Positions 1 to 20,587 of a stretch of 32,000 nt of DNA are shown piece after piece. Each line of letters begins with the position of its first letter. Positions within the stretch are counted from its first letter, which is position 1. Source of the DNA: Planctomycetales bacterium. Lineage in GTDB: Bacteria; 4484-113; JAFGCY01. The position numbers and the translations under genes are program-made. Below the pieces are notes generated by a model, which saw only the letters and a list, made by a program, of their open reading frames with translations, made no database searches and was not told the DNA's origin. The stretch is from contig CP060262.1 of NCBI GenBank assembly GCA_022646745.1, forward strand, positions 1,890,001 through 1,922,000. Direction: 5' to 3'.

Positions 1-2737
1 CCGTCTCTGAGAATGAGATCGGCAAGCTCAGTGCTGAGCAGCAGGCACTGCTTTCAGACGCGGGCTGGAACCAGCCCTACATCGTCCCCAAGGCCGGCAC
101 CCCGATCCAGGGCCCGAGCCATGAGATGCTGATGGCACAGCTTCGTGAGATGGCTGAGCGCGGCGTCGAGATGCTGCCCCGCGGCGTCGAGGGAGAAGGC
201 ACGAAGGGAGCCAGCTGGCTGGACCAGCGCGGCTTCAACCCGGGCGTTGACAGTGGCCTTGTGAAGGGCCAGTACAAGCCCGCCGACACCGGCGCCAACG
301 GCGTGCCGGACTTCGGTTGCAACGCCTCCGGTGCGCTGATGGCTGACAACGGCCAGTCCGACATCGAGGACGTGATCTTCGCCTACGGCGGCAGCATGCC
401 GGCCCAGGCGATCAGCTGGGTGGCTGAGGGTCTGTCGACCATCAACCACTTCAACAGCGTCGGTGGTGGTGGTGACGATGCGTACACCGCCGTTTACCAG
501 CTGTTCGCTGACAGCGAGACCGCGAACCCGAGCAACCAGGGCAACAACGACATCGGTGAGATCGGCTACCGTGCCGACCTCGGCCCCTACGGCATCGGTT
601 ACGGCCAGGGCAGCGGCCCCAGCGGCACGCTGTGCGACGGAACCGCCTACGGTGTCCGCAATGCGTTCTGGATGACCTTCAACGAGAAGTTCTTCGCCCT
701 GCCGAGCGGCCAGGCGACTGCCCTGTACAACGTGCTGATCGCCCCCAGCGGTGATGAGGGTGCGGACCAGGTCAGCCCGATGGACACCTCCGCAAACTTC
801 CAGACCTTCTACTTTGGCAACGTGTCCTCCTGCTACGGGGATGCGATGATCGTCGGCATCAACGCAGCTGACAGCGGTTGCGACATGTTCGACGAGGCCT
901 CCAATGCGCCGTGGCAGGACCGTACGGCGGATGGCAACAGCTACCCGAACATCCTGCACAACCCGATCTTCGGCGTGATCCTGGCCCGCTGGGCCGGCGG
1001 CAACGCCAACTCGGACAGCCAGTTCTTCGGCGACGGCAGCTTCCCGAGTGCGGCGAGCATCGTCGGCTGGCCCGTGGCCCGTCCGTTCGCATACAACAAC
1101 GGCGCCGCGCTGCTCAATGCCAACGGTGCCTACTACGCCTTCGGCCAGTTCTTCGAGAAGGGTTTCATGTGGTGGATCGACTACGACCAGAACAGCAACC
1201 CGACCGCGAGCGACGAAGCGCAGATGTACGTCTACGATGGCAACAACACCTTCTGCGAGGGTGAGTACTCCAAGGTCGAGCCCGACGTGTTCTACGGCGG
1301 CGCTGGCGACCTCGGTGTCGGCGTGACCGTTGACGGCGTGCGCTACGGTGCCGGCGACTGGTCCGCCCCGCAGCTGTCCGACGACGGTACCTATTACCAG
1401 ATCGGCATGCTGCTGGACGAGAACACCGGCATCAGCAGCGTGACCATCGCTGCCAGCGCGCACGGCTTCGGCGGTGTGACGGCTGACGGTGCCGATGTGG
1501 GCCACCCCGAGTGGGGCGCCTGCCTGTACAAGCACAGCACATGGTCATGGCGTGACGGTACGGTCACGGCAGCCGGCACGGCCTTCGATCCGAGCCAGTT
1601 CGCCCGTACCCACACCTACAGCAGCAATGCGATCAAGACCAATGTCGAGGGTGTGTACACGATCCGTAACCAGGTCGTGGACGCCGATGACAACATCGCC
1701 TACGGTGACAGCCTTCCGATGCACCTCGGACACGGCGGCGCCGGTGGTGGCGGTGGCGACACCGAAGTCTGGGTCATCCGCAACGACGGCGGTGACTTCC
1801 AGCTCAACCTCGACGCCCTGACCGGCGACCTTGACGCCCTTGGCGTTGGCTACAGCGTGGTCGACTACAGCGCAACCGTCGCTGACGACTTCGCTGCCAA
1901 CCCGAACGCGAAGGTCGCGATCTGGTACCGTGGTGGACCGGGTGGCGCGGGTGAGTCCGCGACCTACACCACCGCCTGGACCAGCGGTGAGATGGACAAC
2001 TACATCCAGCTGATGAGCGACGGCTTCGGCGTGATGCTGATGAGCCAGAACCACGGCTACGATGGAGACCTGTTCTTCACCAACGGCTGGAGTGGCATCT
2101 ACGGTTATGCGACCCTGCCGGCCTCCGTCCCGGATGCCGACCGCCGCATGCCCTGGGCCTCCAGCCTGTGCACCGATGACGGTATCGGTTTCGGTGGAAC
2201 CCTTGGTTTCATCCCGACCGCCCCGAGCAACTTCATCGGTAACCCGAGCGGCGCGAACTTCGGTGCCGACGGTACCAACGCCGCGGAGCGCTACACCGGT
2301 AGTGGTTCCTCGGGTGAGCTGCCGATCAGCTTCGGCATGGCAACCGGCCGCCAGTACTGCGGTATCGGTTACTACAGCTCCTTCTTCGCGGGCTCCTGCG
2401 CAGGTCCGGCCTTCCGTGCCGGTATCGGCCACCAGCCCAACGCGCTTGGCTTCGACCTGGGCTTCCTGTCCTGGGGTAACAGCCAGGCCCCGGATGCCAA
2501 CATCGGCTTCTTCCCGAGCTACAGCCACAGCTTCGGCACCGGCAAGGTGTGGAACGTGGGCTACAGCTGGGCAGGCACCAGTGTGACGGCTTCCGCTTCC
2601 GGCACGATGGACCGCGCCGACCTGCTGAACAACATCCTCGGTTGGCTGGATGACAGCCTGACCTTCGGTGGTGGCGGCGGCGGTGGCGCCGGCTTCGAGG
2701 AGTACGATGGTCCTCCGGAGATCGTCTGCGTGACCCC
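1..2737 (+). repeat. Copy 1 of a >=2.7-kb near-identical intragenic repeat (5' part of the giant lipoprotein genes).
   Basis: The sense-frame protein and several off-frame ORF translations are letter-identical to those at +5356 (e.g. 54-1535 vs 5410-6891, 2062-2586 vs 7418-7942). The only A/B difference I found is T1895 vs C7251 (GCT/GCC, synonymous). The first divergent base is 2738 (g) vs 8094 (c). Confidence 0.9.
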
Positions 2738-4829
2738 GATCGCCTGGGACAAGGTGAACGGTGCTGTGACGCAGGGTACCGCCGGTGTGGGTGGCCAGAA
2801 CTACCCCGACCCGAACGGTTCCAACGTCTTCGGTCCGGATGTGACCCCCGGCTTTGACTACGCTGTTGAGTACGACACCGGCGTCCGCACCCCGGGCGAC
2901 GATGACGGCGGCCTGAATGGCAACGACATGGACTTCCAGTTCCCGTTCTACGGCTTCCTGCAGTGGGACGACACCCTCGGCGCCATCCCCGGCGACGTGG
3001 AGGCTGCTGAGATCATCGATGTCAACTACAGCGGTATCGCCCTGAGCGACATCTCCGCTGACTGGACCAAGTTCTCCGCCCCCTACGGTGGTGTGTTTGA
3101 TCCTTCCGCCCTCGGCCTCCGTCCGGCAGCCGCCTGGTTCCTGACCGAGACCGACAACTTCGGTAACATCAACACCGCCAGCTACGGCGATGCCTTTGGC
3201 CCGAACCTGACCTTCAGCAATGACGACGACCTGGTTGCCACCGAGGCGATCGCGCACTGGGCACAGGGCACGATGTACGGCGGTTCCCCGGCGTACCTCG
3301 CCTGGGCGATGTATCCCGGCCATAAGTCCGTCCAGTTCGACAACGCTGACATCGCCGTGGGTTACTACGGTGAGGGCGACGTGCTGTGGGAGGACTTCAT
3401 CGCCGACCACGACATCCAGGTCGGACGTGACCTGTGGGCCTACCTGCGCAGTGACTACTCCTTCACCACCCCCGGTGAGGGCCGCACGGTTGACTTCGAC
3501 TACAACACCGTATTCGGTTTCAACGGCGACCTGAACCGCAACGGCGTGGCCGGAGAGGCCGCTGACAAGTTCCCGGTGCGTGTCCGCTTCTTCACTGATG
3601 TGGATGCCTACGACGACTACTTCGATGACCTGAACGGTTACCCGAACTTCTGGCCTGATGGCGACTCCTTCATCGAGGGTGGTTGCTACATGGTGGACAA
3701 CGGACTGCCGAACTACCCGGTCAGCATCTTTGACGATTCCGACGAGGATGATCCGAAGGACACCGTCTCCGGCAGTGGCCCGGACTACAACGTCGCCCTG
3801 TACTTCGAGCTGGCCTTCGGCGTCGGCCCGTACGACGTGGAACTCGACTGGGATTACGACTTCATCGGCTGGGGCAACAGCGGTTACACCATGACCCTGC
3901 CCAACAGCCCGTTTGCCAACAATGGCAAGCTTTCCGATGTCGTGAACGTTGACCCGACCCCGGCTGGCGGCGACGGGGACTACTTCTTCGCCCTGCAGGT
4001 GACCGACAGTTCAGTTCCTGCTCGCACGGATGAGTTCTTCTGGCCCGATGCGGTGCCGCTGCAGCCCAGCCTGAGCTACCTTGTGGTGGATGACAGCACG
4101 CAGAGCGGTGACCTGAGCGCCAGCCAGTGCGCCACTGCCCTGACGACCATCTACGGCAGCCCCGTGTCCGTTGTCAACAGTGCCACGCTGAGCCCCGGTG
4201 ACCTGAATGGTTATTCAGTGGTCGTCTGGTGCACCAACCACCGCTTCAACAACTCCGGCGGTACGGGTCCGGGAATTGTCCAGTCTGACTATGACGTGAT
4301 CGCACCGTACATGGACCAGGGTGGTAACCTCGTGATGTTCTGGCCCTGCCAGGGACCATTCAGTGGTACGACGCAGATTTACTACAACCAGGGACAGATC
4401 GACCTGTGCAAGGACTACCTCGGTTACATCAACTCGACCTTCCGGATGTACTACCGCAACGGCACATCCTCAAGCTACGATCCGCACATCACGGATAGCG
4501 GACTGAGTATCGGCCCCGGCGCGAGCAACATGAACTACATTGATCGCAACGGTTCCAACCCCGGATACTACTGCGGATACTTCAATGATTCGGACCTGAC
4601 CGGTTCTGACGCGGCCTGGTCGTTCACGTCCTCCCGCCGGATCATCCAGCGTTACGACTCAAACGGAGCTTCGGAGGGCGGAGTGGCCCTGGTCAACCAG
4701 TTCTACTTCTGGAATTCCGAAGCGACCTCCTCACTGAGCGGTTCCCCGCTTGGTGGCAGTGTCGCAGCGTCCCAGGTGATCATGTTGAAGAACATGCTCA
4801 ACTACATGGACCCGCTGCTGCTGCCCTAG
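1..4829 (+). CDS. Giant secreted lipoprotein, paralog A. 5' end lies outside the window (reading frame 3). Unknown family, C-terminal cassette type 1.
   Basis: The ORF is open from the window edge; codons read from nt 3 (VSENEIGKLSAEQQ...). The ATG at 126 in the ORF track is internal. Nt 1-2737 match nt 5357-8093 of paralog B, which has a lipoprotein signal peptide upstream. Stop is TAG at 4827-4829, followed by a rho-independent terminator. Composition is rich in G/D/N/Y/F/W and poor in K/R, with three poly-Gly linkers. Confidence 0.85.
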   Translation, partial: VSENEIGKLSAEQQALLSDAGWNQPYIVPKAGTPIQGPSHEMLMAQLREMAERGVEMLPRGVEGEGTKGASWLDQRGFNPGVDSGLVKGQYKPADTGANGVPDFGCNASGALMADNGQSDIEDVIFAYGGSMPAQAISWVAEGLSTINHFNSVGGGGDDAYTAVYQLFADSETANPSNQGNNDIGEIGYRADLGPYGIGYGQGSGPSGTLCDGTAYGVRNAFWMTFNEKFFALPSGQATALYNVLIAPSGDEGADQVSPMDTSANFQTFYFGNVSSCYGDAMIVGINAADSGCDMFDEASNAPWQDRTADGNSYPNILHNPIFGVILARWAGGNANSDSQFFGDGSFPSAASIVGWPVARPFAYNNGAALLNANGAYYAFGQFFEKGFMWWIDYDQNSNPTASDEAQMYVYDGNNTFCEGEYSKVEPDVFYGGAGDLGVGVTVDGVRYGAGDWSAPQLSDDGTYYQIGMLLDENTGISSVTIAASAHGFGGVTADGADVGHPEWGACLYKHSTWSWRDGTVTAAGTAFDPSQFARTHTYSSNAIKTNVEGVYTIRNQVVDADDNIAYGDSLPMHLGHGGAGGGGGDTEVWVIRNDGGDFQLNLDALTGDLDALGVGYSVVDYSATVADDFAANPNAKVAIWYRGGPGGAGESATYTTAWTSGEMDNYIQLMSDGFGVMLMSQNHGYDGDLFFTNGWSGIYGYATLPASVPDADRRMPWASSLCTDDGIGFGGTLGFIPTAPSNFIGNPSGANFGADGTNAAERYTGSGSSGELPISFGMATGRQYCGIGYYSSFFAGSCAGPAFRAGIGHQPNALGFDLGFLSWGNSQAPDANIGFFPSYSHSFGTGKVWNVGYSWAGTSVTASASGTMDRADLLNNILGWLDDSLTFGGGGGGGAGFEEYDGPPEIVCVTPIAWDKVNGAVTQGTAGVGGQNYPDPNGSNVFGPDVTPGFDYAVEYDTGVRTPGDDDGGLNGNDMDFQFPFYGFLQWDDTLGAIPGDVEAAEIIDVNYSGIALSDISADWTKFSAPYGGVFDPSALGLRPAAAWFLTETDNFGNINTASYGDAFGPNLTFSNDDDLVATEAIAHWAQGTMYGGSPAYLAWAMYPGHKSVQFDNADIAVGYYGEGDVLWEDFIADHDIQVGRDLWAYLRSDYSFTTPGEGRTVDFDYNTVFGFNGDLNRNGVAGEAADKFPVRVRFFTDVDAYDDYFDDLNGYPNFWPDGDSFIEGGCYMVDNGLPNYPVSIFDDSDEDDPKDTVSGSGPDYNVALYFELAFGVGPYDVELDWDYDFIGWGNSGYTMTLPNSPFANNGKLSDVVNVDPTPAGGDGDYFFALQVTDSSVPARTDEFFWPDAVPLQPSLSYLVVDDSTQSGDLSASQCATALTTIYGSPVSVVNSATLSPGDLNGYSVVVWCTNHRFNNSGGTGPGIVQSDYDVIAPYMDQGGNLVMFWPCQGPFSGTTQIYYNQGQIDLCKDYLGYINSTFRMYYRNGTSSSYDPHITDSGLSIGPGASNMNYIDRNGSNPGYYCGYFNDSDLTGSDAAWSFTSSRRIIQRYDSNGASEGGVALVNQFYFWNSEATSSLSGSPLGGSVAASQVIMLKNMLNYMDPLLLP

Positions 4830-4870
4830 TGCAAGCTGCCTGAGCCTGGTCGGCTGAACTGACCAAACCG

Positions 4871-4900
4871 GCCCCGGAGTCACTGGCTCCGGGGCTTTTT
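4871..4900 (+). terminator. Rho-independent terminator of giant paralog A.
   Basis: Stem gccccggag (4871-4879), loop tcactgg, stem ctccggggc (4887-4895), then ttttt (4896-4900). Confidence 0.8.
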
Positions 4901-5016
4901 CATTTCCGGATGTTGCAGAGAGGAAATTCTCAGCAGATACATATAAGTAAAGTACGGTCAAGTGATCATCTGCTTAATCGGATCAATCGAACCCTTTACC
5001 TTTCCTTAACGATGGG

Positions 5017-5046: not shown

Positions 5047-5172
5047 AACGGGCCAACGAACGCAGGAGGAACACGCATGCGTGTCAGTGCCTTAATGGGG
5101 CTACCTAGCGCAATCGCGCGCCATCTTCTTCGTTCTTACCCACTTTCATCCCACACCCTTACAGGAGTTTGT

Positions 5173-8100
5173 ATGAAGACTCATGTGAACTGGTGTAAGC
5201 ACCTCGGGCTAACGCTTGTGGCGCTTACGGTAGTCTTCGTAGCAGCTTCCTGCGGTGGTAACGGCGGTGGTATCTCGGCGAATGTCGAGACCCAGACCGG
5301 TACCTCCAACACCGTGATCGACGGAGGTCGTAACGGTGTTGTATCAGCGGAGCTTACCGTCTCTGAGAATGAGATCGGCAAGCTCAGTGCTGAGCAGCAG
5401 GCACTGCTTTCAGACGCGGGCTGGAACCAGCCCTACATCGTCCCCAAGGCCGGCACCCCGATCCAGGGCCCGAGCCATGAGATGCTGATGGCACAGCTTC
5501 GTGAGATGGCTGAGCGCGGCGTCGAGATGCTGCCCCGCGGCGTCGAGGGAGAAGGCACGAAGGGAGCCAGCTGGCTGGACCAGCGCGGCTTCAACCCGGG
5601 CGTTGACAGTGGCCTTGTGAAGGGCCAGTACAAGCCCGCCGACACCGGCGCCAACGGCGTGCCGGACTTCGGTTGCAACGCCTCCGGTGCGCTGATGGCT
5701 GACAACGGCCAGTCCGACATCGAGGACGTGATCTTCGCCTACGGCGGCAGCATGCCGGCCCAGGCGATCAGCTGGGTGGCTGAGGGTCTGTCGACCATCA
5801 ACCACTTCAACAGCGTCGGTGGTGGTGGTGACGATGCGTACACCGCCGTTTACCAGCTGTTCGCTGACAGCGAGACCGCGAACCCGAGCAACCAGGGCAA
5901 CAACGACATCGGTGAGATCGGCTACCGTGCCGACCTCGGCCCCTACGGCATCGGTTACGGCCAGGGCAGCGGCCCCAGCGGCACGCTGTGCGACGGAACC
6001 GCCTACGGTGTCCGCAATGCGTTCTGGATGACCTTCAACGAGAAGTTCTTCGCCCTGCCGAGCGGCCAGGCGACTGCCCTGTACAACGTGCTGATCGCCC
6101 CCAGCGGTGATGAGGGTGCGGACCAGGTCAGCCCGATGGACACCTCCGCAAACTTCCAGACCTTCTACTTTGGCAACGTGTCCTCCTGCTACGGGGATGC
6201 GATGATCGTCGGCATCAACGCAGCTGACAGCGGTTGCGACATGTTCGACGAGGCCTCCAATGCGCCGTGGCAGGACCGTACGGCGGATGGCAACAGCTAC
6301 CCGAACATCCTGCACAACCCGATCTTCGGCGTGATCCTGGCCCGCTGGGCCGGCGGCAACGCCAACTCGGACAGCCAGTTCTTCGGCGACGGCAGCTTCC
6401 CGAGTGCGGCGAGCATCGTCGGCTGGCCCGTGGCCCGTCCGTTCGCATACAACAACGGCGCCGCGCTGCTCAATGCCAACGGTGCCTACTACGCCTTCGG
6501 CCAGTTCTTCGAGAAGGGTTTCATGTGGTGGATCGACTACGACCAGAACAGCAACCCGACCGCGAGCGACGAAGCGCAGATGTACGTCTACGATGGCAAC
6601 AACACCTTCTGCGAGGGTGAGTACTCCAAGGTCGAGCCCGACGTGTTCTACGGCGGCGCTGGCGACCTCGGTGTCGGCGTGACCGTTGACGGCGTGCGCT
6701 ACGGTGCCGGCGACTGGTCCGCCCCGCAGCTGTCCGACGACGGTACCTATTACCAGATCGGCATGCTGCTGGACGAGAACACCGGCATCAGCAGCGTGAC
6801 CATCGCTGCCAGCGCGCACGGCTTCGGCGGTGTGACGGCTGACGGTGCCGATGTGGGCCACCCCGAGTGGGGCGCCTGCCTGTACAAGCACAGCACATGG
6901 TCATGGCGTGACGGTACGGTCACGGCAGCCGGCACGGCCTTCGATCCGAGCCAGTTCGCCCGTACCCACACCTACAGCAGCAATGCGATCAAGACCAATG
7001 TCGAGGGTGTGTACACGATCCGTAACCAGGTCGTGGACGCCGATGACAACATCGCCTACGGTGACAGCCTTCCGATGCACCTCGGACACGGCGGCGCCGG
7101 TGGTGGCGGTGGCGACACCGAAGTCTGGGTCATCCGCAACGACGGCGGTGACTTCCAGCTCAACCTCGACGCCCTGACCGGCGACCTTGACGCCCTTGGC
7201 GTTGGCTACAGCGTGGTCGACTACAGCGCAACCGTCGCTGACGACTTCGCCGCCAACCCGAACGCGAAGGTCGCGATCTGGTACCGTGGTGGACCGGGTG
7301 GCGCGGGTGAGTCCGCGACCTACACCACCGCCTGGACCAGCGGTGAGATGGACAACTACATCCAGCTGATGAGCGACGGCTTCGGCGTGATGCTGATGAG
7401 CCAGAACCACGGCTACGATGGAGACCTGTTCTTCACCAACGGCTGGAGTGGCATCTACGGTTATGCGACCCTGCCGGCCTCCGTCCCGGATGCCGACCGC
7501 CGCATGCCCTGGGCCTCCAGCCTGTGCACCGATGACGGTATCGGTTTCGGTGGAACCCTTGGTTTCATCCCGACCGCCCCGAGCAACTTCATCGGTAACC
7601 CGAGCGGCGCGAACTTCGGTGCCGACGGTACCAACGCCGCGGAGCGCTACACCGGTAGTGGTTCCTCGGGTGAGCTGCCGATCAGCTTCGGCATGGCAAC
7701 CGGCCGCCAGTACTGCGGTATCGGTTACTACAGCTCCTTCTTCGCGGGCTCCTGCGCAGGTCCGGCCTTCCGTGCCGGTATCGGCCACCAGCCCAACGCG
7801 CTTGGCTTCGACCTGGGCTTCCTGTCCTGGGGTAACAGCCAGGCCCCGGATGCCAACATCGGCTTCTTCCCGAGCTACAGCCACAGCTTCGGCACCGGCA
7901 AGGTGTGGAACGTGGGCTACAGCTGGGCAGGCACCAGTGTGACGGCTTCCGCTTCCGGCACGATGGACCGCGCCGACCTGCTGAACAACATCCTCGGTTG
8001 GCTGGATGACAGCCTGACCTTCGGTGGTGGCGGCGGCGGTGGCGCCGGCTTCGAGGAGTACGATGGTCCTCCGGAGATCGTCTGCGTGACCCCCATCTCC

Positions 8101-10014
8101 TGGAACAAGGTTGATGGTTCCGTGACGCAGGGTACCGCCGGTGTGGGTGGCCAGAACTACCCCGACCCGAACGGTTCCAACGTCTTCGGTCCGGATGTGA
8201 CCCCCGGCTTTGACTACGCTGTCGAGTACGACACCGGCGTCCGTACCCCGGGCGACGATGACGGCGGCCTTAATGCCAACGACATCGACTTCCAGTTCCC
8301 GTTCTACGGCTTCCTTGAGTGGGACGACACCCTCGGCGCCATCCCCGGCGACGTGGAGGCTGCTGAGATCATCGATGTCAACTACAGCGGTATCCCGCTG
8401 AGCGACATCTCCGCTGACTGGACCAAGTTCAACGCTCCCTACGGTGGTGTGTTTGATCCTTCCGCCCTTGGCCTGAACCCGGCTGCCGCCTGGTTCCTGA
8501 CCGAGACCGACACCTTCGGCAGCATCAACACCGCCGGCTACGGCGATGCCTTCGGTCCGAACCTGGTGTTCGACAGCGATAGTGAGTTCGTTGCCACCGA
8601 GGCGATCGCGCACTGGGCACAGGGCACGATGTACGGCGGCTCCCCGGCGTACCTCGCCTGGGCGATGTTCCCCGGCCACAAGAGCGTGAAGTACAACGCC
8701 GGCGGTACCGCCGTCGGTTACTACAGCGAGGGTGGCATCCTCTGGGAGGACTTCATCCGCGACCACGACATCCAGGTCGGACGTGACCTGTATGCCTACC
8801 TGCGCAGCGACTACTCCTTCACCACCCCCGGTGAGGGCCGTACCGTTGACTTTGACTACGACACCCTCGTCGGCTGGAACGGCGACATGAACCGCAACGG
8901 AACCACCGGCGAAGCCGGCGACAAGTTCCCGGTGCGTGTCCGCTTCTTCACCGATGTGGACGTCTACGACGATTACTTCGATGACCTGAACGGTTACCCG
9001 AACTTCTGGCCTGATGGCGACTCCTTCATCGAGGGTGGTTGCTACATGGTGGACATCGGTGACCCGAACTACCCGGTGCTGATCTTCGACGACGCCGATG
9101 AGGACGACCCGAAGGACACCGTCTCCGGTACCGGCCCGTCCTATGACGTGGACCTGTACTTCGAGCTGGCCTTCGGCGCCGGCCCGTACGACGTGGAGCT
9201 TGACTGGAACTATGACTTCATCGGTCATGGCAACAGTGGCTTCACCCAGGCCGTCGGCACCTTCGCCGCCAACGGCAAGAACAACGACAGCGTGAACGTC
9301 GACCCGACCCCGGCTGGTGGAGATGGCAACTACTTCTTCAGCCTCGAAGTGACCGACAGCACGCTGCCGACCCCGACCACCGACAGCTTCTTCTGGCCCG
9401 ATGCGGTGCCGCTGATGCCCGGTGCGCTGTTCTATGACGATATGTCCGCGTACAACACGTACAACGATGCCAACGCCGCCGGCTGGCTGCGTGGTACCGG
9501 CCCGGGCCATAGTGGCGCGGTGAACTGGCATATCGGCCCGCAGTGGGAGACGGCGTTCAACCTGTACAACGGCCAGGCCTGGCACTGCAACGACGGCGCT
9601 GACGGCACCAACGGCGGTACCTACAACGGCGTTCCGAAGTCCACCCTGCGTTCTCCGGCGGTCAACGCTCCTCCGGGATCCGACCCCTGGCTGCACTTCC
9701 GCGCCAACCTGGGCTTCCAGGAGAGCACCACATTCGACCAGTTCTGGCTCGGATGGGACAGCTCCGCAGCTGCCAACAACGAGGCTTCCGCCACATGGAC
9801 CCAGCGTTTCGGTCCGTTCGGCAACTTCGACGCGGCATGGGGCAACAGTGCCCAGACGCAGCTTCGTACCTACAACATCTCCGCCCCGGGCGGTTCCACC
9901 TTCTACCTGATGTTCTCGCTGGAGTCGCTTGACTCGATCGGCAACGCAGCGGATGGTGTGCACCTTGACCCGGTGACCTGCACGGACGGCAACTTCCCCG
10001 ATCCGACCTGGTAA
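5173..10014 (+). CDS. Giant secreted lipoprotein, paralog B (1613 aa). Unknown family, C-terminal cassette type 2 (jelly-roll/MAM-like pattern).
   Basis: ATG at 5173 is preceded by AGGAG (5164-5168). N-terminus MKTHVNWCKHLGLTLVALTVVFVAASCGGNGGG is a signal peptide plus lipobox Cys. The ORF-track start at 5077 adds a non-signal-like extension. Stop is TAA at 10012-10014, followed by a terminator. Confidence 0.85.
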   Translation: MKTHVNWCKHLGLTLVALTVVFVAASCGGNGGGISANVETQTGTSNTVIDGGRNGVVSAELTVSENEIGKLSAEQQALLSDAGWNQPYIVPKAGTPIQGPSHEMLMAQLREMAERGVEMLPRGVEGEGTKGASWLDQRGFNPGVDSGLVKGQYKPADTGANGVPDFGCNASGALMADNGQSDIEDVIFAYGGSMPAQAISWVAEGLSTINHFNSVGGGGDDAYTAVYQLFADSETANPSNQGNNDIGEIGYRADLGPYGIGYGQGSGPSGTLCDGTAYGVRNAFWMTFNEKFFALPSGQATALYNVLIAPSGDEGADQVSPMDTSANFQTFYFGNVSSCYGDAMIVGINAADSGCDMFDEASNAPWQDRTADGNSYPNILHNPIFGVILARWAGGNANSDSQFFGDGSFPSAASIVGWPVARPFAYNNGAALLNANGAYYAFGQFFEKGFMWWIDYDQNSNPTASDEAQMYVYDGNNTFCEGEYSKVEPDVFYGGAGDLGVGVTVDGVRYGAGDWSAPQLSDDGTYYQIGMLLDENTGISSVTIAASAHGFGGVTADGADVGHPEWGACLYKHSTWSWRDGTVTAAGTAFDPSQFARTHTYSSNAIKTNVEGVYTIRNQVVDADDNIAYGDSLPMHLGHGGAGGGGGDTEVWVIRNDGGDFQLNLDALTGDLDALGVGYSVVDYSATVADDFAANPNAKVAIWYRGGPGGAGESATYTTAWTSGEMDNYIQLMSDGFGVMLMSQNHGYDGDLFFTNGWSGIYGYATLPASVPDADRRMPWASSLCTDDGIGFGGTLGFIPTAPSNFIGNPSGANFGADGTNAAERYTGSGSSGELPISFGMATGRQYCGIGYYSSFFAGSCAGPAFRAGIGHQPNALGFDLGFLSWGNSQAPDANIGFFPSYSHSFGTGKVWNVGYSWAGTSVTASASGTMDRADLLNNILGWLDDSLTFGGGGGGGAGFEEYDGPPEIVCVTPISWNKVDGSVTQGTAGVGGQNYPDPNGSNVFGPDVTPGFDYAVEYDTGVRTPGDDDGGLNANDIDFQFPFYGFLEWDDTLGAIPGDVEAAEIIDVNYSGIPLSDISADWTKFNAPYGGVFDPSALGLNPAAAWFLTETDTFGSINTAGYGDAFGPNLVFDSDSEFVATEAIAHWAQGTMYGGSPAYLAWAMFPGHKSVKYNAGGTAVGYYSEGGILWEDFIRDHDIQVGRDLYAYLRSDYSFTTPGEGRTVDFDYDTLVGWNGDMNRNGTTGEAGDKFPVRVRFFTDVDVYDDYFDDLNGYPNFWPDGDSFIEGGCYMVDIGDPNYPVLIFDDADEDDPKDTVSGTGPSYDVDLYFELAFGAGPYDVELDWNYDFIGHGNSGFTQAVGTFAANGKNNDSVNVDPTPAGGDGNYFFSLEVTDSTLPTPTTDSFFWPDAVPLMPGALFYDDMSAYNTYNDANAAGWLRGTGPGHSGAVNWHIGPQWETAFNLYNGQAWHCNDGADGTNGGTYNGVPKSTLRSPAVNAPPGSDPWLHFRANLGFQESTTFDQFWLGWDSSAAANNEASATWTQRFGPFGNFDAAWGNSAQTQLRTYNISAPGGSTFYLMFSLESLDSIGNAADGVHLDPVTCTDGNFPDPTW
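5357..8093 (+). repeat. Copy 2 of the near-identical 2.7-kb intragenic repeat.
   Basis: Same as 1-2737 at offset +5356. See the evidence for that feature. Confidence 0.9.
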
Positions 10015-10043
10015 GGAACTGAGCCTGATCGACTGAATCGATT

Positions 10044-10073
10044 GCCCCCGGGGCATGTCCCCGGGGGCTTTTT
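10044..10073 (+). terminator. Rho-independent terminator of giant paralog B.
   Basis: Stem gcccccgggg (10044-10053), loop catgt, stem ccccgggggc (10059-10068), then ttttt (10069-10073). A second 8-bp hairpin follows at 10079-10100 (cagttgcc-ttttct-ggcaactg). Confidence 0.85.
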
Positions 10074-10110
10074 CATTCCAGTTGCCTTTTCTGGCAACTG
10101 CGACGCCGGA

Positions 10111-10121
10111 TGTGCTATGTT
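10111..10121 (+). promoter_or_regulatory. Possible extended -10 promoter element for the ankyrin gene.
   Basis: tgTGcTATGTT resembles the TGTGYTAGAAT motif upstream of FG-GAP genes 1 and 2. It lies between the upstream terminator and the RBS GGGAGA (10129-10134). No clear -35. Confidence 0.25.
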
Positions 10122-10140
10122 AGCCCCGAGGGAGAAAGCC

Positions 10141-11409
10141 ATGCCGCGATTCCAGCTGATCATCGCCCTGCTCGCAGCCCTGTGCTGCCTCTATGCATCC
10201 TGTGATAAACCTGCCCCGGGTCAGTCCGCAGACGGCCAGGCTACCGCAAAGGATGGGAATGATTCGCCAACCCCTGCCGCTGAAGCCGGGCCGGCGCCAC
10301 AGACGATCAACCCCTCTGAATTGCCGGACCCGGACCACAAGCCACCAAGGCAGTACAATGAGGAGGAACTCGCACGCTTCGAGGAAATGCTTGCGGTTGA
10401 CAGTGCGGAAACCCGCAACAAGCTGGTTGACGACGGGGCAATGCTGGATGCTGACCACCTGATTGACTACATCAGCATGGGCCGGATGAACATCGTGGTG
10501 CGCATGATCGCCTCCGGCATGGACCTGAACCGGCCGGCTGCGAACGGCAAGCTGCCACTGGCTGAAGCGATCCTGCAGAATGACCCGTGGCTGATCGAGC
10601 AGATGATCAAGCACGGCGCGGATCCGACGCTGACTGACGACCCGACTCAAGGCGTCGGTCGCAGCATGCTCCACTATGCCACGAAGATGAATGATGCCGG
10701 CCTGGTGGAGCGGCTGCTTGAGCTCGGTGTGCCGGTTGACATCAGGGACGTCAATGACCAGACACCGCTGGACGTGGCGGCGACCTATGGCGAGACTGAG
10801 GCGATGGCTGTGCTGCTTGACAACGGTGCGGATCCGGTGCGCATGGACAAGGGCGGGAGCATCCCGGTGCTGCTGGCCGCCGGCTATGGACACACGGACG
10901 CGGTGCGCCTGCTGCTGCAGCATGGGGCCGACATCAACTTCCAGCATGAACGGGGTTGGACACCGCTGCTGCTGTCGATCTACTACGATCAACTTGACAC
11001 GGCACAGTACGTACTTGACAACGGTGGCGACATCAAGGCGCAGCTGGAGACGGGCTACGGGGCTGCCGGGATCGCCGCCACACTTGGCGACCCGGAGATG
11101 CTGCGCCTCGTGATCGATGCCGGGGCACCGCTGGATGACATCACCGCCCAGGACGGCCGAAACCTGGTCCATATCTGTGCGATCAACAACCTCGGCAGTT
11201 TCATCCGTGAACTGGCGGAGGCCGGCGTGGACCCTGCAGCAGAGGACAGTGAAGGCCGTACTGCGCTGGAGCTGGCACGCGAAGCGAACGACACGGAGGC
11301 GGAGCAGGTGCTGATGGAACTGACAGGGGCACCTCCGGCACCGCCGGAAACGGACGACCCGGCTGCCGAGTCAGCGGATTCGGAACCACCAGCCGGCAGC
11401 GCAAGTTGA
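10141..11409 (+). CDS. Ankyrin-repeat lipoprotein (422 aa).
   Basis: ATG at 10141 follows a GGGAGA RBS. N-terminus MPRFQLIIALLAALCCLYASCDKP has a lipobox with Asp at +2. A P/A/E-rich linker is followed by about 8-9 ankyrin-like repeats (e.g. GRSMLHYATKMNDAGLVERLLELGVPVDIRD, QTPLDVAATYGETEAMAVLLDNGADP, GWTPLLLSIYYDQLDTAQYVLDNGGDI, GRTALELAREANDTEAEQVL), then an acidic P-rich tail. The ORF-track start at 10042 overlaps the upstream terminator and is rejected. Confidence 0.85.
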   Translation: MPRFQLIIALLAALCCLYASCDKPAPGQSADGQATAKDGNDSPTPAAEAGPAPQTINPSELPDPDHKPPRQYNEEELARFEEMLAVDSAETRNKLVDDGAMLDADHLIDYISMGRMNIVVRMIASGMDLNRPAANGKLPLAEAILQNDPWLIEQMIKHGADPTLTDDPTQGVGRSMLHYATKMNDAGLVERLLELGVPVDIRDVNDQTPLDVAATYGETEAMAVLLDNGADPVRMDKGGSIPVLLAAGYGHTDAVRLLLQHGADINFQHERGWTPLLLSIYYDQLDTAQYVLDNGGDIKAQLETGYGAAGIAATLGDPEMLRLVIDAGAPLDDITAQDGRNLVHICAINNLGSFIRELAEAGVDPAAEDSEGRTALELAREANDTEAEQVLMELTGAPPAPPETDDPAAESADSEPPAGSAS

Positions 11410-11550
11410 TTCGCAACTCTCAGCAACATTGTGACTGTCAGCCCATGGAACGACCGCAGCTGAGAAGGGATAATCAGTTGTCAATTCCAGCGGGAAACTG
11501 GCGCGGAATTGGCCGCAAAAAGCCTGTCCCAGACTGACATGCGCGCGTTG

Positions 11551-11573
11551 CAGGCTCCCTGCTGTGTTAGAAT
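11551..11573 (+). promoter_or_regulatory. Putative extended -10 promoter for FG-GAP/ASPIC gene 1.
   Basis: caggctccctgcTGtgtTAGAAT. A nearly identical 21-23 nt block, caggctctgcTGtgcTAGAAT, occurs at 21903-21923 upstream of FG-GAP gene 2. TAGAAT (11568-11573) is a 5/6 match to the -10 consensus. Confidence 0.4.
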
Positions 11574-11707
11574 CAGACTGGTTGAAATTGAGGAGATCCG
11601 CTCCGTCATCGAGTCTCTCTCAGAGACCGGGCCGCTATTGTTGGAAACGTCCTGCCGGCACCCCCACTGGATGTTCTGCGATGGACCGGATCAAGGCGGG
11701 TAATCAT

Positions 11708-15430: not shown

Positions 15431-15458
15431 GGCGACCAATTTTGACCTATATAAGAAA

Positions 15459-15483
15459 GGGAGGGCTACGGCCCTCCCTTTTT
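15459..15483 (+). terminator. Rho-independent terminator of FG-GAP gene 1.
   Basis: Stem gggagggc (15459-15466), loop tacg, stem gccctccc (15471-15478), then ttttt (15479-15483). Confidence 0.85.
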
Positions 15484-15618
15484 CCGTTTCTGTGGGTTCA
15501 AGCGGTGGTTTAGGCGATAATTGAGGCAGTTTAACTAAAATTTTACCTGTTTCAGGGCGTTAAATGATTGTTGTTTCTCATTTTTATTGAGTGTGCTCTT
15601 TCTTTAACAGGCGTCGCT

Positions 15619-15648
15619 GTTATACTTTTTACGCACAGCTTATAGGTA
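15619..15648 (+). promoter_or_regulatory. Putative promoter and conserved transcript-start block for giant paralog C.
   Basis: GTTATACT-N6-GCACAGCTTATAGGTA, the same architecture as 5017-5046. It sits in a long AT-rich island (15484-15650). TATACT at 15621-15626 is -10-like. Confidence 0.35.
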
Positions 15649-15757
15649 CATGGTCAGGGATCGCAACCCTGCTGCGTGCGCTTCTTTTCCCGGGAGTGTA
15701 CGAAGCATAGCTTTTCCAAACCATGGAATACACACCATATCCACAATAGGAGAGTGT

Positions 15758-18700
15758 ATGAAGACTCACGTGAACTGGTGTAAGCACCTCGGGCTTTCGC
15801 TCGTGGCGCTTACGGTAGTCTTCGTAGCAGCTTCCTGCGGTGGTAACGGCGGCGGTCTTTCGACGAATGTCGAGACCCAGACCGGTACCTCCAACACCGT
15901 GATCGACGGAGGTCGCAACGGTGTTGTATCAGCGGAGCTTACCGTCTCTGAGAATGAGATCGGCAAGCTCAGTGCTGAGCAGCAGGCACTGCTTTCAGAC
16001 GCGGGCTGGAACCAGCCCTACATCGTCCCCAAGGCCGGCACCCCGATCCAGGGCCCGAGCCATGAGATGCTGATGGCACAGCTTCGTGAGATGGCTGAGC
16101 GCGGCGTCGAGATGCTGCCCCGCGGCGTCGAGGGAGAAGGCACGAAGGGAGCCAGCTGGCTGGACCAGCGCGGCTTCAACCCGGGCGTTGACAGTGGCCT
16201 TGTGAAGGGCCAGTACAAGCCCGCCGACACCGGCGCCAACGGCGTGCCGGACTTCGGTTGCAACGCCTCCGGTGCGCTGATGGCTGACAACGGCCAGTCC
16301 GACATCGAGGACGTGATCTTCGCCTACGGCGGCAGCATGCCGGCCCAGGCGATCAGCTGGGTGGCTGAGGGTCTGTCGACCATCAACCACTTCAACAGCG
16401 TCGGTGGTGGTGGTGACGATGCGTACACCGCCGTTTACCAGCTGTTCGCTGACAGCGAGACCGCGAACCCGAGCAACCAGGGCAACAACGACATCGGTGA
16501 GATCGGCTACCGTGCCGACCTCGGCCCCTACGGCATCGGTTACGGCCAGGGCAGCGGCCCCAGCGGCACGCTGTGCGACGGAACCGCCTACGGTGTCCGC
16601 AATGCGTTCTGGATGACCTTCAACGAGAAGTTCTTCGCCCTGCCGAGCGGCCAGGCGACTGCCCTGTACAACGTGCTGATCGCCCCCAGCGGTGATGAGG
16701 GTGCGGACCAGGTCAGCCCGATGGACACCTCCGCGAACTTCCAGACCTTCTACTTTGGCAACGTGTCCTCCTGCTACGGGGATGCGATGATCGTCGGCAT
16801 CAACGCCGCTGACAGCGGTTGCGACATGTTCGACGAGGCCTCCAATGCGCCGTGGCAGGACCGTACGGCGGATGGCAACAGCTACCCGAACATCCTGCAC
16901 AACCCGATCTTCGGCGTGATCCTGGCCCGCTGGGCCGGCGGCAACGCCAACTCCAACAGCCAGTTCTTCGGCGACGGCAGCTTCCCGAGTGCCGCCAGCA
17001 CGATTGGCTGGCCCGTGGCCCGTCCGTTCGCATACAACAACGGCGCCGCGCTGCTCAATGCCAACGGTGCCTACTACGCCTTCGGCCAGTTCTTCGAGAA
17101 GGGTTTCATGTGGTGGATCGACTACGACCAGAACAGCAACCCGACCGCGAGCGACGAAGCGCAGATGTACGTCTACGATGGCAACAACACCTTCTGCGAG
17201 GGTGAGTACTCCAAGGTCGAGCCCGACGTGTTCTACGGCGGCGCTGGCGACCTCGGTGTCGGCGTGACCGTTGACGGCGTTCGCTACGGCGGCGGCGACT
17301 GGTCCGCCCCGCAGCTGTCCGACGACGGTACCTATTACCAGATCGGCATGCTGCTGGACGAGAACACCGGCATCAGCAGCGTGACCATCGCTGCCAGCGC
17401 GCACGGCTTCGGCGGTGTGACGGCTGACGGTGCCGATGTGGGCCACCCCGAGTGGGGCGCCTGCCTGTACAAGCACAGCACATGGTCATGGCGTGACGGT
17501 ACGGTCACGGCAGCCGGCACGGCCTTCGATCCGAGCCAGTTCGCCCGTACCCACACCTACAGCAGCAATGCGATCAAGACCAATGTCGAGGGTGTGTACA
17601 CGATCCGTAACCAGGTCGTGGACGCCGATGACACCTTCGCCTACGGCGACAGCCTTCCGATGCACCTCGGACACGGCGGCGCCGGTGGTGGCGGTGGCGA
17701 CACCGAAGTCTGGGTCATCCGCAACGACGGCGGTGACTTCCAGCTCAACCTCGACGCCCTGACCGGCGACCTTGACGCCCTTGGCGTTGGCTACAGCGTG
17801 GTCGACTACAGCGCAACCGTCGCTGACGACTTCGCTGCCAACCCGAACGCGAAGGTCGCGATCTGGTACCGTGGTGGACCGGGTGGCGCGGGTGAGTCCG
17901 CGACCTACACCACCGCCTGGACCAGCGGTGAGATGGACAACTACATCCAGCTGATGAGCGACGGCTTCGGCGTGATGCTGATGAGCCAGAACCACGGCTA
18001 CGATGGAGACCTGTTCTTCACCAACGGTTGGAGTGGTATCTACGGTTATGCGACCCTGCCGGCTTCCGTCCCGGATGCCGACCGCCGCATGCCCTGGGCC
18101 TCCAGCCTGTGCACCGATGACGGTATCGGTTTCGGTGGAACCCTTGGTTTCATCCCGACCGCCCCGAGCAACTTCATCGGTAACCCGAGCGGCGCTAACT
18201 TCGGTGCCGACGGTACCAACGCCGCGGAGCGCTACACCGGTAGTGGTTCCTCGGGCGAGCTGCCGATCAGCTTCGGCATGGCAACCGGCCGCCAGTACTG
18301 CGGTATCGGTTACTACAGCTCCTTCTTCGCGGGCTCCTGCGCAGGTCCGGCCTTCCGTGCCGGTATCGGCCACCAGCCCAACGCGCTTGGCTTCGACCTG
18401 GGCTTCCTGTCCTGGGGTAACAGCCAGGCCCCGGATGCCAACATCGGCTTCTTCCCGAGCTACAGCCACAGCTTCGGCACCGGCAAGGTGTGGAACGTTG
18501 GCTACAGCTGGGCAGGCACCAGTGTGACGGCTTCCGCTTCCGGCACGATGGACCGCGCTGACCTGCTGAACAACATCCTCGGTTGGCTGGATGACAGCCT
18601 GACCTTCGGTGGCGGCGGCGGCGGTGGCGCCGGTTTCGAGGAGTACGATGGTCCTCCGGAGATCGTCTGCGTGACCCCGATCGCCTGGGACAAGGTGAAC

Positions 18701-20587
18701 GGCGCTGTGACGCAGGGTACCGCCGGTGTGGGTGGCCAGAACTACCCCGACCCGAACGGTTCCAACGTCTTCGGTCCGGATGTGACCCCCGGCTTCGATT
18801 ACGCTGTCGAGTACAACACCGGCGTCCGTACCCCGGGCGACGATGACGGCGGCCTGAATGGCAACGACCTTGACTTCCAGTTCCCGTTCTACGGTTACAT
18901 GGAGTGGAACGACGCCCTCGGCGCCATCCCCGGCACCGTGGAGCCCGCTGAGATCGTCGATGTCAACTACAGCGGTATCGCCCTGAGCGACATCTCCGCT
19001 GACTGGACCAAGTTCAACGCTCCCTACGGTGGTGTGTTTGATCCTTCCGCCCTTGGCCTGAACCCGGCTGCCGCCTGGTTCCTGACCGAGACTGACACTT
19101 TCGGCAACATCAACACCGCCAGCTACGGCGATGCCTTCGGCCCGAACCTGGTGTTCAACAACGACACCGACCTGGTTGCCACCGAGGCGATCGCGCACTG
19201 GGCACAGGGCACGATGTACGGCGGCTCCCCGGCGTACCTCGCCTGGGCGATGTTCCCCGGCCACAAGAGCGTGAAGTACAACGGTGGCGGTACCGCCGTC
19301 GGTTACTACACTGAGGGTGGCATCCTGTGGGAAGAGTTCATCGAGGACCACGACATTGAGGCTGGCCGCGACCTGTGGGCCTACCTGCGCAGCGACTACT
19401 CCTTCACCACCCCCGGTGAGGGCCGTACCGTTGACTTCGACTACGGCACCGTGCTTGGCTTCAATGGCGACCTGAACCGCAACGGCGTGTTCGGTGAGGC
19501 CGCTGACAAGTTCCCGGTGCGTGTCCGCTTCTTCACCGATGTGGACGTCTACGACGATTACTTCGATGACCTGAACGGTTACCCGAACTTCTGGCCTGAT
19601 GGCGACTCCTTCATCGAGGGTGGTTGCTACATGGTGGACGAGGGCGACCCGAACTACCCCGTCAGCATCTTCGATGACGCTGATGAGGAGGACCCGACTG
19701 ACACCGTCGCCGGTGCCGGTCCCTACGATGTTGACCTGTTCTTCGAGATCGCTTACGGCGTCGGTCCCTACGATGTCGACCTCGACTGGAACTACAACTT
19801 CGTCCTGTTCGGCGGCAGCGGCAACACCCAGCCCGTCGGCACCTACCCGGCTGCCGGCAAGTGGGGCGAGACCGTCTCCGTTGACCCGACCCCCGCTGGT
19901 GGTAACGGTAACTACACCTTCGCCCTGATGGTGACCGATGCCAACAACGACACCGACGAGTTCTTCTGGCCCGATCCGGTGCCGCTGTTCCCCGCCTGGT
20001 ACTTCGGCGACAACATGTCCGCTTACGCGAACACGAACGACGCCCTGGCCGCCGGCTGGACCCGCAGCAACACCAACGCCACCCAGTGGTACATCGGTCC
20101 CCAGTGGGACGGCTTCTCCGGTCCGTTCTTCGGCATCATGAGCAGCCCGGCTGTGATCGGTGAGTGGGGCGGCCAGATGTGGCACTGCAACGACGGCACG
20201 GGCCTGGAGTACCAGAACAACGCCCAGGCCGGCCTGCGTAGCCCCGCCTTCAACGTCAGCAGCGGTACCCCGTGGCTGCACTACCGCGTCTGCCTCGACA
20301 TGGAGGACCAGACCTGGGAGCACTTCTATCATGGTGCCTCCGGCGGTTCTGCTGCCAGTGCGACCCAGACCACCTGGAGCAACGGCTTCCAGGAGATCGG
20401 TCACACCATCGATGGTTTCGGCGTGAACTCCAGCACCCAGCAGCATTGGCAGATGGGTGGCGTGACCGCTGGTACCCGCTACATCCACTTCCGCTTCACG
20501 GCTGATTCCTCAATCAACTGGTGGAGTGGTAGCCACGTGGACGGCATCTACGTTACCGACGGCAACTTCCCGCCGGTCGGTAGCTAA
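15758..20587 (+). CDS. Giant secreted lipoprotein, paralog C (1609 aa). Unknown family, C-terminal cassette type 2 (divergent from that of B).
   Basis: ATG at 15758 follows TAGGAGAG. N-terminus MKTHVNWCKHLGLSLVALTVVFVAASCGGNGGG has signal peptide and lipobox. It is collinear with paralog B without indels through at least 18678. Stop is TAA at 20585-20587, followed by a terminator. Confidence 0.85.
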   Translation: MKTHVNWCKHLGLSLVALTVVFVAASCGGNGGGLSTNVETQTGTSNTVIDGGRNGVVSAELTVSENEIGKLSAEQQALLSDAGWNQPYIVPKAGTPIQGPSHEMLMAQLREMAERGVEMLPRGVEGEGTKGASWLDQRGFNPGVDSGLVKGQYKPADTGANGVPDFGCNASGALMADNGQSDIEDVIFAYGGSMPAQAISWVAEGLSTINHFNSVGGGGDDAYTAVYQLFADSETANPSNQGNNDIGEIGYRADLGPYGIGYGQGSGPSGTLCDGTAYGVRNAFWMTFNEKFFALPSGQATALYNVLIAPSGDEGADQVSPMDTSANFQTFYFGNVSSCYGDAMIVGINAADSGCDMFDEASNAPWQDRTADGNSYPNILHNPIFGVILARWAGGNANSNSQFFGDGSFPSAASTIGWPVARPFAYNNGAALLNANGAYYAFGQFFEKGFMWWIDYDQNSNPTASDEAQMYVYDGNNTFCEGEYSKVEPDVFYGGAGDLGVGVTVDGVRYGGGDWSAPQLSDDGTYYQIGMLLDENTGISSVTIAASAHGFGGVTADGADVGHPEWGACLYKHSTWSWRDGTVTAAGTAFDPSQFARTHTYSSNAIKTNVEGVYTIRNQVVDADDTFAYGDSLPMHLGHGGAGGGGGDTEVWVIRNDGGDFQLNLDALTGDLDALGVGYSVVDYSATVADDFAANPNAKVAIWYRGGPGGAGESATYTTAWTSGEMDNYIQLMSDGFGVMLMSQNHGYDGDLFFTNGWSGIYGYATLPASVPDADRRMPWASSLCTDDGIGFGGTLGFIPTAPSNFIGNPSGANFGADGTNAAERYTGSGSSGELPISFGMATGRQYCGIGYYSSFFAGSCAGPAFRAGIGHQPNALGFDLGFLSWGNSQAPDANIGFFPSYSHSFGTGKVWNVGYSWAGTSVTASASGTMDRADLLNNILGWLDDSLTFGGGGGGGAGFEEYDGPPEIVCVTPIAWDKVNGAVTQGTAGVGGQNYPDPNGSNVFGPDVTPGFDYAVEYNTGVRTPGDDDGGLNGNDLDFQFPFYGYMEWNDALGAIPGTVEPAEIVDVNYSGIALSDISADWTKFNAPYGGVFDPSALGLNPAAAWFLTETDTFGNINTASYGDAFGPNLVFNNDTDLVATEAIAHWAQGTMYGGSPAYLAWAMFPGHKSVKYNGGGTAVGYYTEGGILWEEFIEDHDIEAGRDLWAYLRSDYSFTTPGEGRTVDFDYGTVLGFNGDLNRNGVFGEAADKFPVRVRFFTDVDVYDDYFDDLNGYPNFWPDGDSFIEGGCYMVDEGDPNYPVSIFDDADEEDPTDTVAGAGPYDVDLFFEIAYGVGPYDVDLDWNYNFVLFGGSGNTQPVGTYPAAGKWGETVSVDPTPAGGNGNYTFALMVTDANNDTDEFFWPDPVPLFPAWYFGDNMSAYANTNDALAAGWTRSNTNATQWYIGPQWDGFSGPFFGIMSSPAVIGEWGGQMWHCNDGTGLEYQNNAQAGLRSPAFNVSSGTPWLHYRVCLDMEDQTWEHFYHGASGGSAASATQTTWSNGFQEIGHTIDGFGVNSSTQQHWQMGGVTAGTRYIHFRFTADSSINWWSGSHVDGIYVTDGNFPPVGS
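15942..18678 (+). repeat. Copy 3 of the near-identical 2.7-kb intragenic repeat (about 99% identical to copies 1 and 2).
   Basis: Offset is +15941 from copy 1 with no indels. Only a handful of substitutions are visible: protein changes NANSD>NANSN, SIVG>STIG, GAGDW>GGGDW, DNIAYG>DTFAYG, plus a few synonymous sites. Confidence 0.85.

Follow-up and report, generated by a model that had tools for sequence, protein, structure and literature searches.

Near-identical scaffolds and paralog-specific C-terminal tips in a family of giant genes of a Planctomycetales bacterium

Three giant genes lie in a 32,000-nucleotide stretch of the genome of a Planctomycetales bacterium (assembly GCA_022646745.1, contig CP060262.1, positions 1,890,001 to 1,922,000 of the forward strand; this whole stretch is called the window below). 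They have in common a long body, the short sequence FFWPD(A/P)VPL and a conserved 3' untranslated region (UTR), and between the last two they code C-terminal domains, here called tails, that are not all alike. A sequence-only reading of the window had proposed that the short motif and the UTR are recombination handles bracketing a swappable cassette, the layout being formally that of polymorphic C-terminal-domain systems such as CdiA and Rhs. The question raised by the locus is whether tails are exchanged at these borders or whether the genes diversify by another route. The answer best supported, held with considerable confidence, is that they belong to a gene family whose scaffold is homogenised by gene conversion and whose tips, each an immunoglobulin (Ig)-like domain followed by its tail, are long-lived and specific to each paralog. 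The domain layout, the recombination pattern and the covariation in an RNA element are direct results of the analysis.

The genes and the parts of them that the argument uses are the following.

1 to 4829, + strand: paralog A, H7A35_07555 (P0097, 1670 aa), whose first 62 codons lie before the window
3708 (start approximate) to 4061, + strand: final Ig-like domain of A, ending in FFWPDAVPL (4035 to 4061)
4062 to 4826, + strand: A-type tail, 255 aa, predicted alpha/beta, ThuA-like / class-I glutamine-amidotransferase-like
5173 to 10014, + strand: paralog B, H7A35_07560 (P0001, 1613 aa), with a putative signal peptide ending in ..VAASCGG
9061 (start approximate) to 9414, + strand: final Ig-like domain of B, ending in FFWPDAVPL (9388 to 9414)
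9415 to 10011, + strand: J-type tail of B, 199 aa, predicted all-beta, with weak likeness to choice-of-anchor C/J
15758 to 20587, + strand: paralog C, H7A35_07575 (P0108, 1609 aa)
19640 (start approximate) to 19987, + strand: final Ig-like domain of C, ending in FFWPDPVPL (19961 to 19987)
19988 to 20584, + strand: J-type tail of C, 199 aa, 35% identical to the B tail

The long open reading frames that contain the motif in frame are 126..4829 (cut by the window start), 5077..10014 and 15650..20587. The B protein is 100% identical to H7A35_07560 of a Planctomycetales metagenome-assembled genome (MAG) with a contig of 4.11 Mb. The source genome codes six paralogs (07550, 07555, 07560, 07575, 15075 and 15895), 6/6 of which have FFWPD[AP]VPL. 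Gene 07550 is found directly upstream of the window, and 15075 and 15895 are at distant loci. The family is rare: 17 clusters are found in a search of 5.8 billion proteins, and its profile has 81 matches at E<=1e-3 among 1.84 billion representatives, 36 of these below 1e-30. A Pfam scan of proteins A, B and C gives no family at E<=0.1 except a chance match to TY-Chap3. Pfam and NCBIfam hold no model for the family, and nothing in them scores above cut-off for the tails or for the whole proteins. This giant lipoprotein family is itself previously undescribed. Its members have 1,600–1,900 aa and all start with a signal peptide in which a conserved Cys precedes a Gly-rich stretch. The Cys-Gly-Gly is lipobox-like and is read as a putative lipoprotein signal, B being a probable lipoprotein. 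The family is lineage-restricted and probably one of secreted or surface proteins with N-terminal lipidation.

The identity between copies is distributed very unevenly along the genes. At the DNA level the three copies of the window are ~100% identical to about position 2700, 80–95% identical to about position 3700 and 57–71% identical over the 200 nt before the motif. Since identity already falls upstream of it, the motif is a small island inside a diverged region and not the edge of a conserved block. In the protein alignment of the six paralogs, residues ~100–1000 show 88–100% identity arranged in mosaic patches, and divergence is progressive past residue ~1000. For example, 15075 is like 07550 in columns 100–400 and like B in columns 400–500. 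This mosaic near-identity of residues ~100–1000 indicates gene conversion. Compared with B, gene A (07555) shows 100% identity in columns 0–900 and 96% in columns 900–1000; compared with 07550, it shows 97–100% from column 500 to the end and only 73–97% in columns 0–500. It is a hybrid of the 5' part of B and the 3' part of 07550, such as an unequal crossover inside the core shared by B and a 07550-type gene is expected to give. Such a crossover also explains that A is directly adjoined downstream by B. A second, similar hybrid (P0111) is found in a contig of an independent ENA assembly.

The same contrast between scaffold and tip is observed in other genomes. For the first core bin, the A-type and C-type genes of genome AC1.30 are closer to each other (95% identity) than to their window-genome orthologs (85% and 77%). 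The final Ig bin has only 53% identity for this AC1.30 pair, against 88% for C-type orthologs across genomes. Identity within the genome thus exceeds identity between orthologs in the core and the order is reversed in the Ig bin, which indicates concerted evolution. Three tandem 1,905-aa paralogs composed of core, A-type and J-type domains occupy positions 10001–25718 of an independent 2.4-Mb contig (L002). They are ~100% identical over 4 kb, 39–63% identical across the last Ig domain and the A-type domain, and again 75–96% identical in the J-type domain. Their variable block encloses the motif and starts ~100 aa upstream of it.

These independent loci bear on the suspicion that assembly or polishing of a repeat-rich MAG exaggerates the contrast between conserved body and variable tail. 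The three copies of the window are exactly identical over 2.7 kb and short-read MAGs of relatives break at contig ends in these genes, as an artefact would have it. A like pattern is nevertheless present in the L002 contig, in AC1.30 (where the identity is 95%, not 100%) and in the ENA contig of P0111, and mosaic single differences between the copies survive. The artefact is accordingly a quite improbable explanation, and as the sole cause it is rejected because the independent assemblies (L002, AC1.30, P0111) agree. In the favoured reading the scaffold (~residues 100–1000) would be kept near-identical within the genome by ongoing gene conversion and unequal crossover. The distal region would stay paralog-specific, ending in an Ig-like domain that an optional C-terminal module may follow. 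New combinations of scaffold and tail do arise by recombination, gene A being one of them, with the crossover in the long identical core and not at the motif.

What, then, is the motif? The 27-nt sequence TTCTTCTGGCCCGATSCGGTGCCGCTG is found on the + strand at exactly three places in the window, 4035–4061, 9388–9414 and 19961–19987, where 0 are expected from shuffled sequences; with its variable base it is written TTCTTCTGGCCCGAT(G/C)CGGTGCCGCTG. The sequence-only reading had all three copies, with that of B misplaced by 9 nt (9397–9423 instead of 9388–9414). Its length for the B tail changes in turn from 196 to 199 aa (9415–10011), and the 255 aa of A and the 199 aa of C stand. An alignment of the family shows the motif as the final conserved stretch of an Ig-like domain, the pattern of which is Y-x-F-A-L-x-V-T-D ... 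aromatic-x-W-P-x-x-V-x-L, then x-P. The protein terminates 0–6 residues past the motif in at least 9 family members and in ~14 non-family proteins; for nine of the family members the distance is 1–5 residues. The Ig-domain profile alone also matches unrelated proteins, namely PQQ and SBBP beta-propeller proteins, which have the same [YF]-x-W-P-x-x-V-x-L ending. Because the family and unrelated proteins share this domain and many of them stop at the motif, FFWPDxVPL is the end of an Ig-like domain, after which comes a Pro-containing linker. The domain boundaries suggest that it forms the last strand. As part of the favoured reading and with the same considerable confidence, the motif is a structural domain end with repeated evolutionary domain gain and loss, rather than a dedicated recombination or cleavage signal. 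Note that the Ig-like domain ending in [YF]xWPxxVxL is a free-standing module that has no Pfam model (P0047–P0091) and often occupies the very C-terminus; P0047 carries three tandem copies. A weak hairpin flagged by a terminator-like scan at window positions 9406–9425 overlaps the 3' end of the B motif (GTGCCGCTGATGCCCGGTGC) and is probably due to chance.

The tails that follow the motif are of distinct types. The 255-aa tail of A has no significant similarity to the rest of B and no cross-match with the profile of the B/C tails, while the B and C tails are homologous and strongly diverged (35% identity, E=1e-27). This is as the sequence-only reading had it, A being unrelated to a single type shared by B and C. 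The predicted structures, alpha/beta and ThuA-like for A and all-beta for B and C, are in line with this division. The structure model of the A-type tail has an overall predicted local distance difference test score (pLDDT) of 55 and is confident (80–92) in its first half only, which forms a beta-alpha-beta fold. Its best matches in the PDB are the ThuA-like structures 4jqs and 4pxy (BACUNI_01602) with E=1.7e-4 and TM ~0.5, followed by flavodoxin, the IFT52 N-terminal domain and glutamine amidotransferase (GATase) folds. The A tail thus appears ThuA-like or GATase-like at fold level; the likeness to BACUNI_01602 is limited to the fold, with 9–13% identity and no Pfam match. The model of the Ig domain plus tail of B is all-beta with a pLDDT of 47, too poor for a fold search. 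Profiles of the choice-of-anchor C/J group (TIGR04362, NF038128) match two J-type members at E=1.4e-4 and C at E=0.035, below the curated cut-offs, and the J-type profile has no match among PDB sequences. These all-beta and weak profile likenesses do not establish membership of that group; the J-type tail is probably a jelly-roll-like binding domain. The tails match no Pfam family even at E<=10 and nothing toxin-like was found; they may act in ligand binding. A stretch of B (residues ~645–950, window ~7100–8000), DTEVWVIRNDGG...MDRADLLNNILGWLD, resembles the A tail (LSYLVVDD...VIMLKNMLNYMD) by eye, with no significant BLASTP match. The resemblance would suggest a second ThuA-like domain inside the scaffold, an idea dropped in view of the BLASTP result.

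Tail diversity extends across the family. Hidden Markov models (HMMs) of the two tail types show that the sequence past the motif is either absent, A alone, J alone, A then J (P0009, P0010 and P0036, with P0035 and P0039 looking alike by eye) or of another kind. In P0029 the A-type tail leads into SBBP beta-propeller repeats, in P0033 a PKD domain precedes a region rich in repeats, and further members have other or tandem jelly-roll-like domains. The homologs, which the sequence-only reading had proposed to catalogue, are strongly diverse in their tails past this one position. The tandem arrangement in P0009 and P0010 also marks A and J as distinct domains. Differential loss from an ancestor with core, A and J, the A-only and J-only genes arising by in-frame deletion with no exchange at all, could generate part of this catalogue. 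It is in keeping with the A+J architectures seen in several deep branches (P0009, P0010, P0035, P0036), with the match of the A and J profiles to domains of the A+J proteins at E<=1e-60 and with the retention of the UTR behind all tail types. The SBBP propeller, PKD and tandem jelly-roll tails however require gains, and the hybrid 07555 shows that tails are also redistributed by recombination. Loss on its own is therefore a possible yet doubtful account. Probably it contributes as one step of the favoured explanation and does not replace it, the A-type and J-type tails being in the latter distinct old domains that would be inherited with their Ig domain and 3' UTR as stable units.

The stability of these units is best seen in the genes that follow B and C, which are listed here with a further relative.

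10141 to 15430, + strand: ankyrin lipoprotein gene (10141 to 11409) and FG-GAP/ASPIC lipoprotein gene (~11708 to 15430), found behind the B-type gene in every genome checked
20685 to 25754, + strand: ankyrin lipoprotein gene (20685 to 21899) and FG-GAP/ASPIC lipoprotein gene (22020 to 25754), found behind the C-type gene in every genome checked
26095 to 29823: third FG-GAP paralog

At five other loci (L001, L007, L009, L010 and L012) the B-type gene is followed by ank1 and fg1 and the C-type gene by ank2 and fg2. The A-type genes have neither ankyrin nor FG-GAP genes behind them in the other genomes examined, and the contexts of P0017 and P0006 show no conserved neighbours; from these two contexts the ankyrin and FG-GAP genes are seen to be partners of the B- and C-type modules only. 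The window products of ank1 and ank2 are 25% identical and those of the FG-GAP genes 64–71%. Given this divergence of both pairs, the B and C modules are old duplicates in which only the big genes have been homogenised at their 5' end. Ig domain, tail, UTR, ankyrin gene and FG-GAP gene of the B- and C-type genes form orthologous units in at least 4 genomes, and the stable units of the favoured reading would in B and C take in these downstream genes. The B and C orthologs of near relatives (L007, L012) reach 98% identity to the window genes in the Ig bin, and the J-type profile recognises their tails at E<=1e-65. Note that sequence change is much faster in the ankyrin genes than in the genes beside them, ankyrin orthologs being ~48% identical compared with 71–78% for the FG-GAP orthologs.

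Several copies with identical 5' and variable 3' parts, among which gene conversion is active, also recall antigenic or phase variation, in which silent donor cassettes supply new sequence to a single expressed copy as in pilE/pilS, vlsE or msp2. Every copy is however full-length and has a start, a lipoprotein signal peptide and a terminator to itself, the window contains no truncated donors, and the variable parts are conserved between genomes instead of being hypervariable. Variation of this kind is thus highly improbable. A diversity-generating retroelement or silent-cassette variation is likewise unlikely because the window holds no partial copies.

Downstream of the stop codons, homology resumes with a box and a terminator hairpin behind all three genes, as had been noticed from the sequence. 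The elements are organised as follows.

4839 to 4903, + strand: element of A, with a GAGCCT box, a hairpin at 4848 to 4864 (loop CUGAA), a terminator at 4870 to 4896 and a U-tract
10018 to 10075, + strand: element of B, with the box at 10021 to 10026, the hairpin at 10027 to 10043 and the terminator at 10044 to 10068
20593 to 20650, + strand: element of C, with the box at 20596 to 20601, the hairpin at 20602 to 20618 and the terminator at 20619 to 20643

The box GAGCCTGRTCGRCTGAA starts at 4842, 10021 and 20596, that is 6–12 nt past the stops, and the terminator hairpins come next. The UTRs of B and C are near-identical over ~57 nt and A has in common with them only the box and the hairpin architecture. 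The same parts recur family-wide (L001–L004, L007–L015) within ~60 nt: first the box GAGMCU, then a small hairpin of 6 bp, and last a terminator of high GC content. The stem of the small hairpin is ATCGN/N'CGAU and its loop CUGAA. It pairs in 90% of the alignment cells, with double-sided changes in 4/6 pairs; 0/500 shuffles reach its score and slid controls collapse. A conserved helix with compensatory changes, as is asked of a structured cis-RNA element, is thus present. Minimum free energy folds of single sequences give the hairpin and the terminator in four variants. The element is kept behind family members that are 31–40% identical to B in protein and have different tails. Scans with an exact pattern in 596 Gb of genomes and with a looser one in metagenomes gave 6 and 3 matches, respectively; the 7/9 that have enough upstream DNA to judge are all 4–13 nt past the stop of a family-type gene. 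Within the window, the matches of a covariance model are precisely the ends of the three genes. Outside the window it finds extra copies at L013 377–434 and L002 15926–15983, and nothing behind the tail-less gene of P0006. Rfam has 0 matches in the window at gathering thresholds, the sub-threshold matches being driven only by the terminator. Note that the extra element at L002 15926–15983 is weaker and lies in the first intergenic region of the tandem array.

The conservation of the UTR requires no explanation by recombination, since a covarying RNA hairpin with a terminator, kept at 31–40% protein identity, accounts for it. The hairpin abuts an intrinsic terminator and could play a role in mRNA 3'-end formation, stability or regulation, a function that may go beyond termination. 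Conserved, covarying and, in the 596 Gb of genomes scanned, seen behind this family only, the hairpin-terminator is a candidate new cis-regulatory RNA motif. It is the most novel element of the system, the arrangement of the genes being itself of a known evolutionary type in an undescribed family.

The proposal that the tails are exchanged through homology of motif and UTR, with binding domains as cargo, can now be weighed. Much of its descriptive basis holds: conserved body, short junction, alternative tails and conserved 3' UTR are found family-wide, so that diverse tails do stand between a conserved strand and a conserved UTR. The motif is an island of nucleotide identity, ~55 nt of UTR homology are found behind every tail type, recombination between paralogs is active, and the B and C tails each have a cognate, fast-evolving ankyrin gene behind them. 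It is the role of handle that finds no support. Divergence begins hundreds of nt upstream of the motif, in the window as in L002; the motif closes an Ig domain common to unrelated proteins; and the UTR is explained as an RNA element. In the B- and C-type genes Ig domain and tail co-segregate across genomes, with modules that are stable and orthologous down to their downstream genes, and in related strains (L007 and L012, 98% in the Ig bin) the tails are near-identical. The sole mapped hybrid has its crossover in the core. The orphan cassettes that were to be looked for are absent from a six-frame HMM scan of the window, which finds no Ig, A, J or core fragments beyond the three genes. They are likewise absent from a search of 5.8 G proteins with the A-tail profile, where the only matches are pieces of full-length orthologs cut off at contig ends, and where the tail stands in no other kind of protein.

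Polymorphic toxins have VENN or PxxxxDPxGL motifs, immunity genes and orphan modules as hallmarks. CdiA-CT and Rhs-CT proteins open with a large conserved N-terminal body, and a short conserved stretch separates it from a C-terminal domain that varies (PMC3150448). The likeness of the present genes to CdiA/Rhs is confined to this formal layout. Proteins A, B and C have no Pfam match to a TPS domain or FHA repeats, and ankyrin and FG-GAP genes are their neighbours rather than CdiB. VENN is not in any of the six paralogs, no PxxxxDPxGL, RHS/YD-like motif or repeat was found, and there is no RHS Pfam match on the big proteins. A C-terminal toxin with a cognate immunity gene was not found either: the genes next downstream of B and C code exported ankyrin lipoproteins and are conserved as orthologs, and A has no immunity-like gene after it, B following it directly. 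Neither orphan C-terminal modules nor C-terminal polymorphism between close strains was detected. Unlike those of polymorphic toxins, the tails here are of few, old types that are conserved between strains. A polymorphic C-terminal-domain system with toxin, TPS, RHS and VENN features all missing is an unlikely explanation of the locus. The variant in which the end of the Ig domain and the UTR hairpin-terminator serve as paired homology anchors, exchanging C-terminal binding modules between paralogs or strains while the hairpin doubles as a post-transcriptional control common to all copies, is also unlikely. If true, it would amount to a polymorphic C-terminal system made of surface proteins and not of toxins, in an environmental lineage related to Planctomycetota.

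The reading preferred here, a conversion-homogenised scaffold with long-lived Ig-plus-tail tips, has several points against it. The conversion tracts and the hybrid are mapped at the protein level only, and assembly or polishing could have inflated the figure of 100% that long repeats of this MAG show. The J-type fold is supported by a model of poor quality (pLDDT 47) and by weak profile matches (E=1.4e-4 and 0.035). The motif is poorly resolved in both structure models, with a pLDDT below 50 in A and falling from ~61 to 38 across the motif in B. In addition, of the codons for conserved amino acids, 7/7 are identical in all three genes within the motif compared with 43–67% in the preceding 300 nt, a contrast with roughly p=0.01–0.06 that was chosen post hoc. 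The motif codons, including the rare CCC and GAT, are kept in orthologs of other genomes. The contrast is suggestive, and the motif, a local island of nucleotide identity, may have a role at the nucleotide level.

The closest analogue of the family, by analogy of organisation, is the LigA/LigB pair of Leptospira. The ligA and ligB genes have a 5' region that is identical from -266 to +1890 and different C-termini; ligA stems from a duplication of ligB in which the C-terminal region was lost, and lig genes are documented to recombine with one another (PMC7821625). In both cases paralogous surface lipoproteins (putative ones here) combine an identical 5' region with a divergent 3' region, the Lig situation being paralleled here by six copies that are identical in the core and differ in which C-terminal domain they carry, if any. 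The putative lipoprotein signal, the ~100% identity over 2.7 kb that then falls and the existence of tail-less members all follow the Lig type. Lig serves as an analogy only: the present proteins have no Big_2 domains, which define Lig proper, and no sequence similarity to it. They are also much larger, with a non-repeat scaffold, tails that differ by whole folds and a conserved 3' UTR hairpin, and their organism is environmental and not a pathogen. The locus is thus an environmental example of LigA/LigB-type evolution in which a hybrid paralog is directly visible. Gene conversion keeps its scaffold uniform throughout the genome, unlinked loci included, while the distal Ig+tail modules remain distinct, and this homogenisation spans modules old enough for their neighbouring ankyrin genes to be at 25% identity. 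The arrangement suggests that a single type of scaffold is on display, bearing one or another of several ligand-binding tips, which would probably present different binding specificities at the cell surface.

At the end of the locus (window 30122–31497, - strand), the translations, judged by eye, appear to be those of an extracytoplasmic function (ECF)-type sigma factor and a putative anti-sigma factor.

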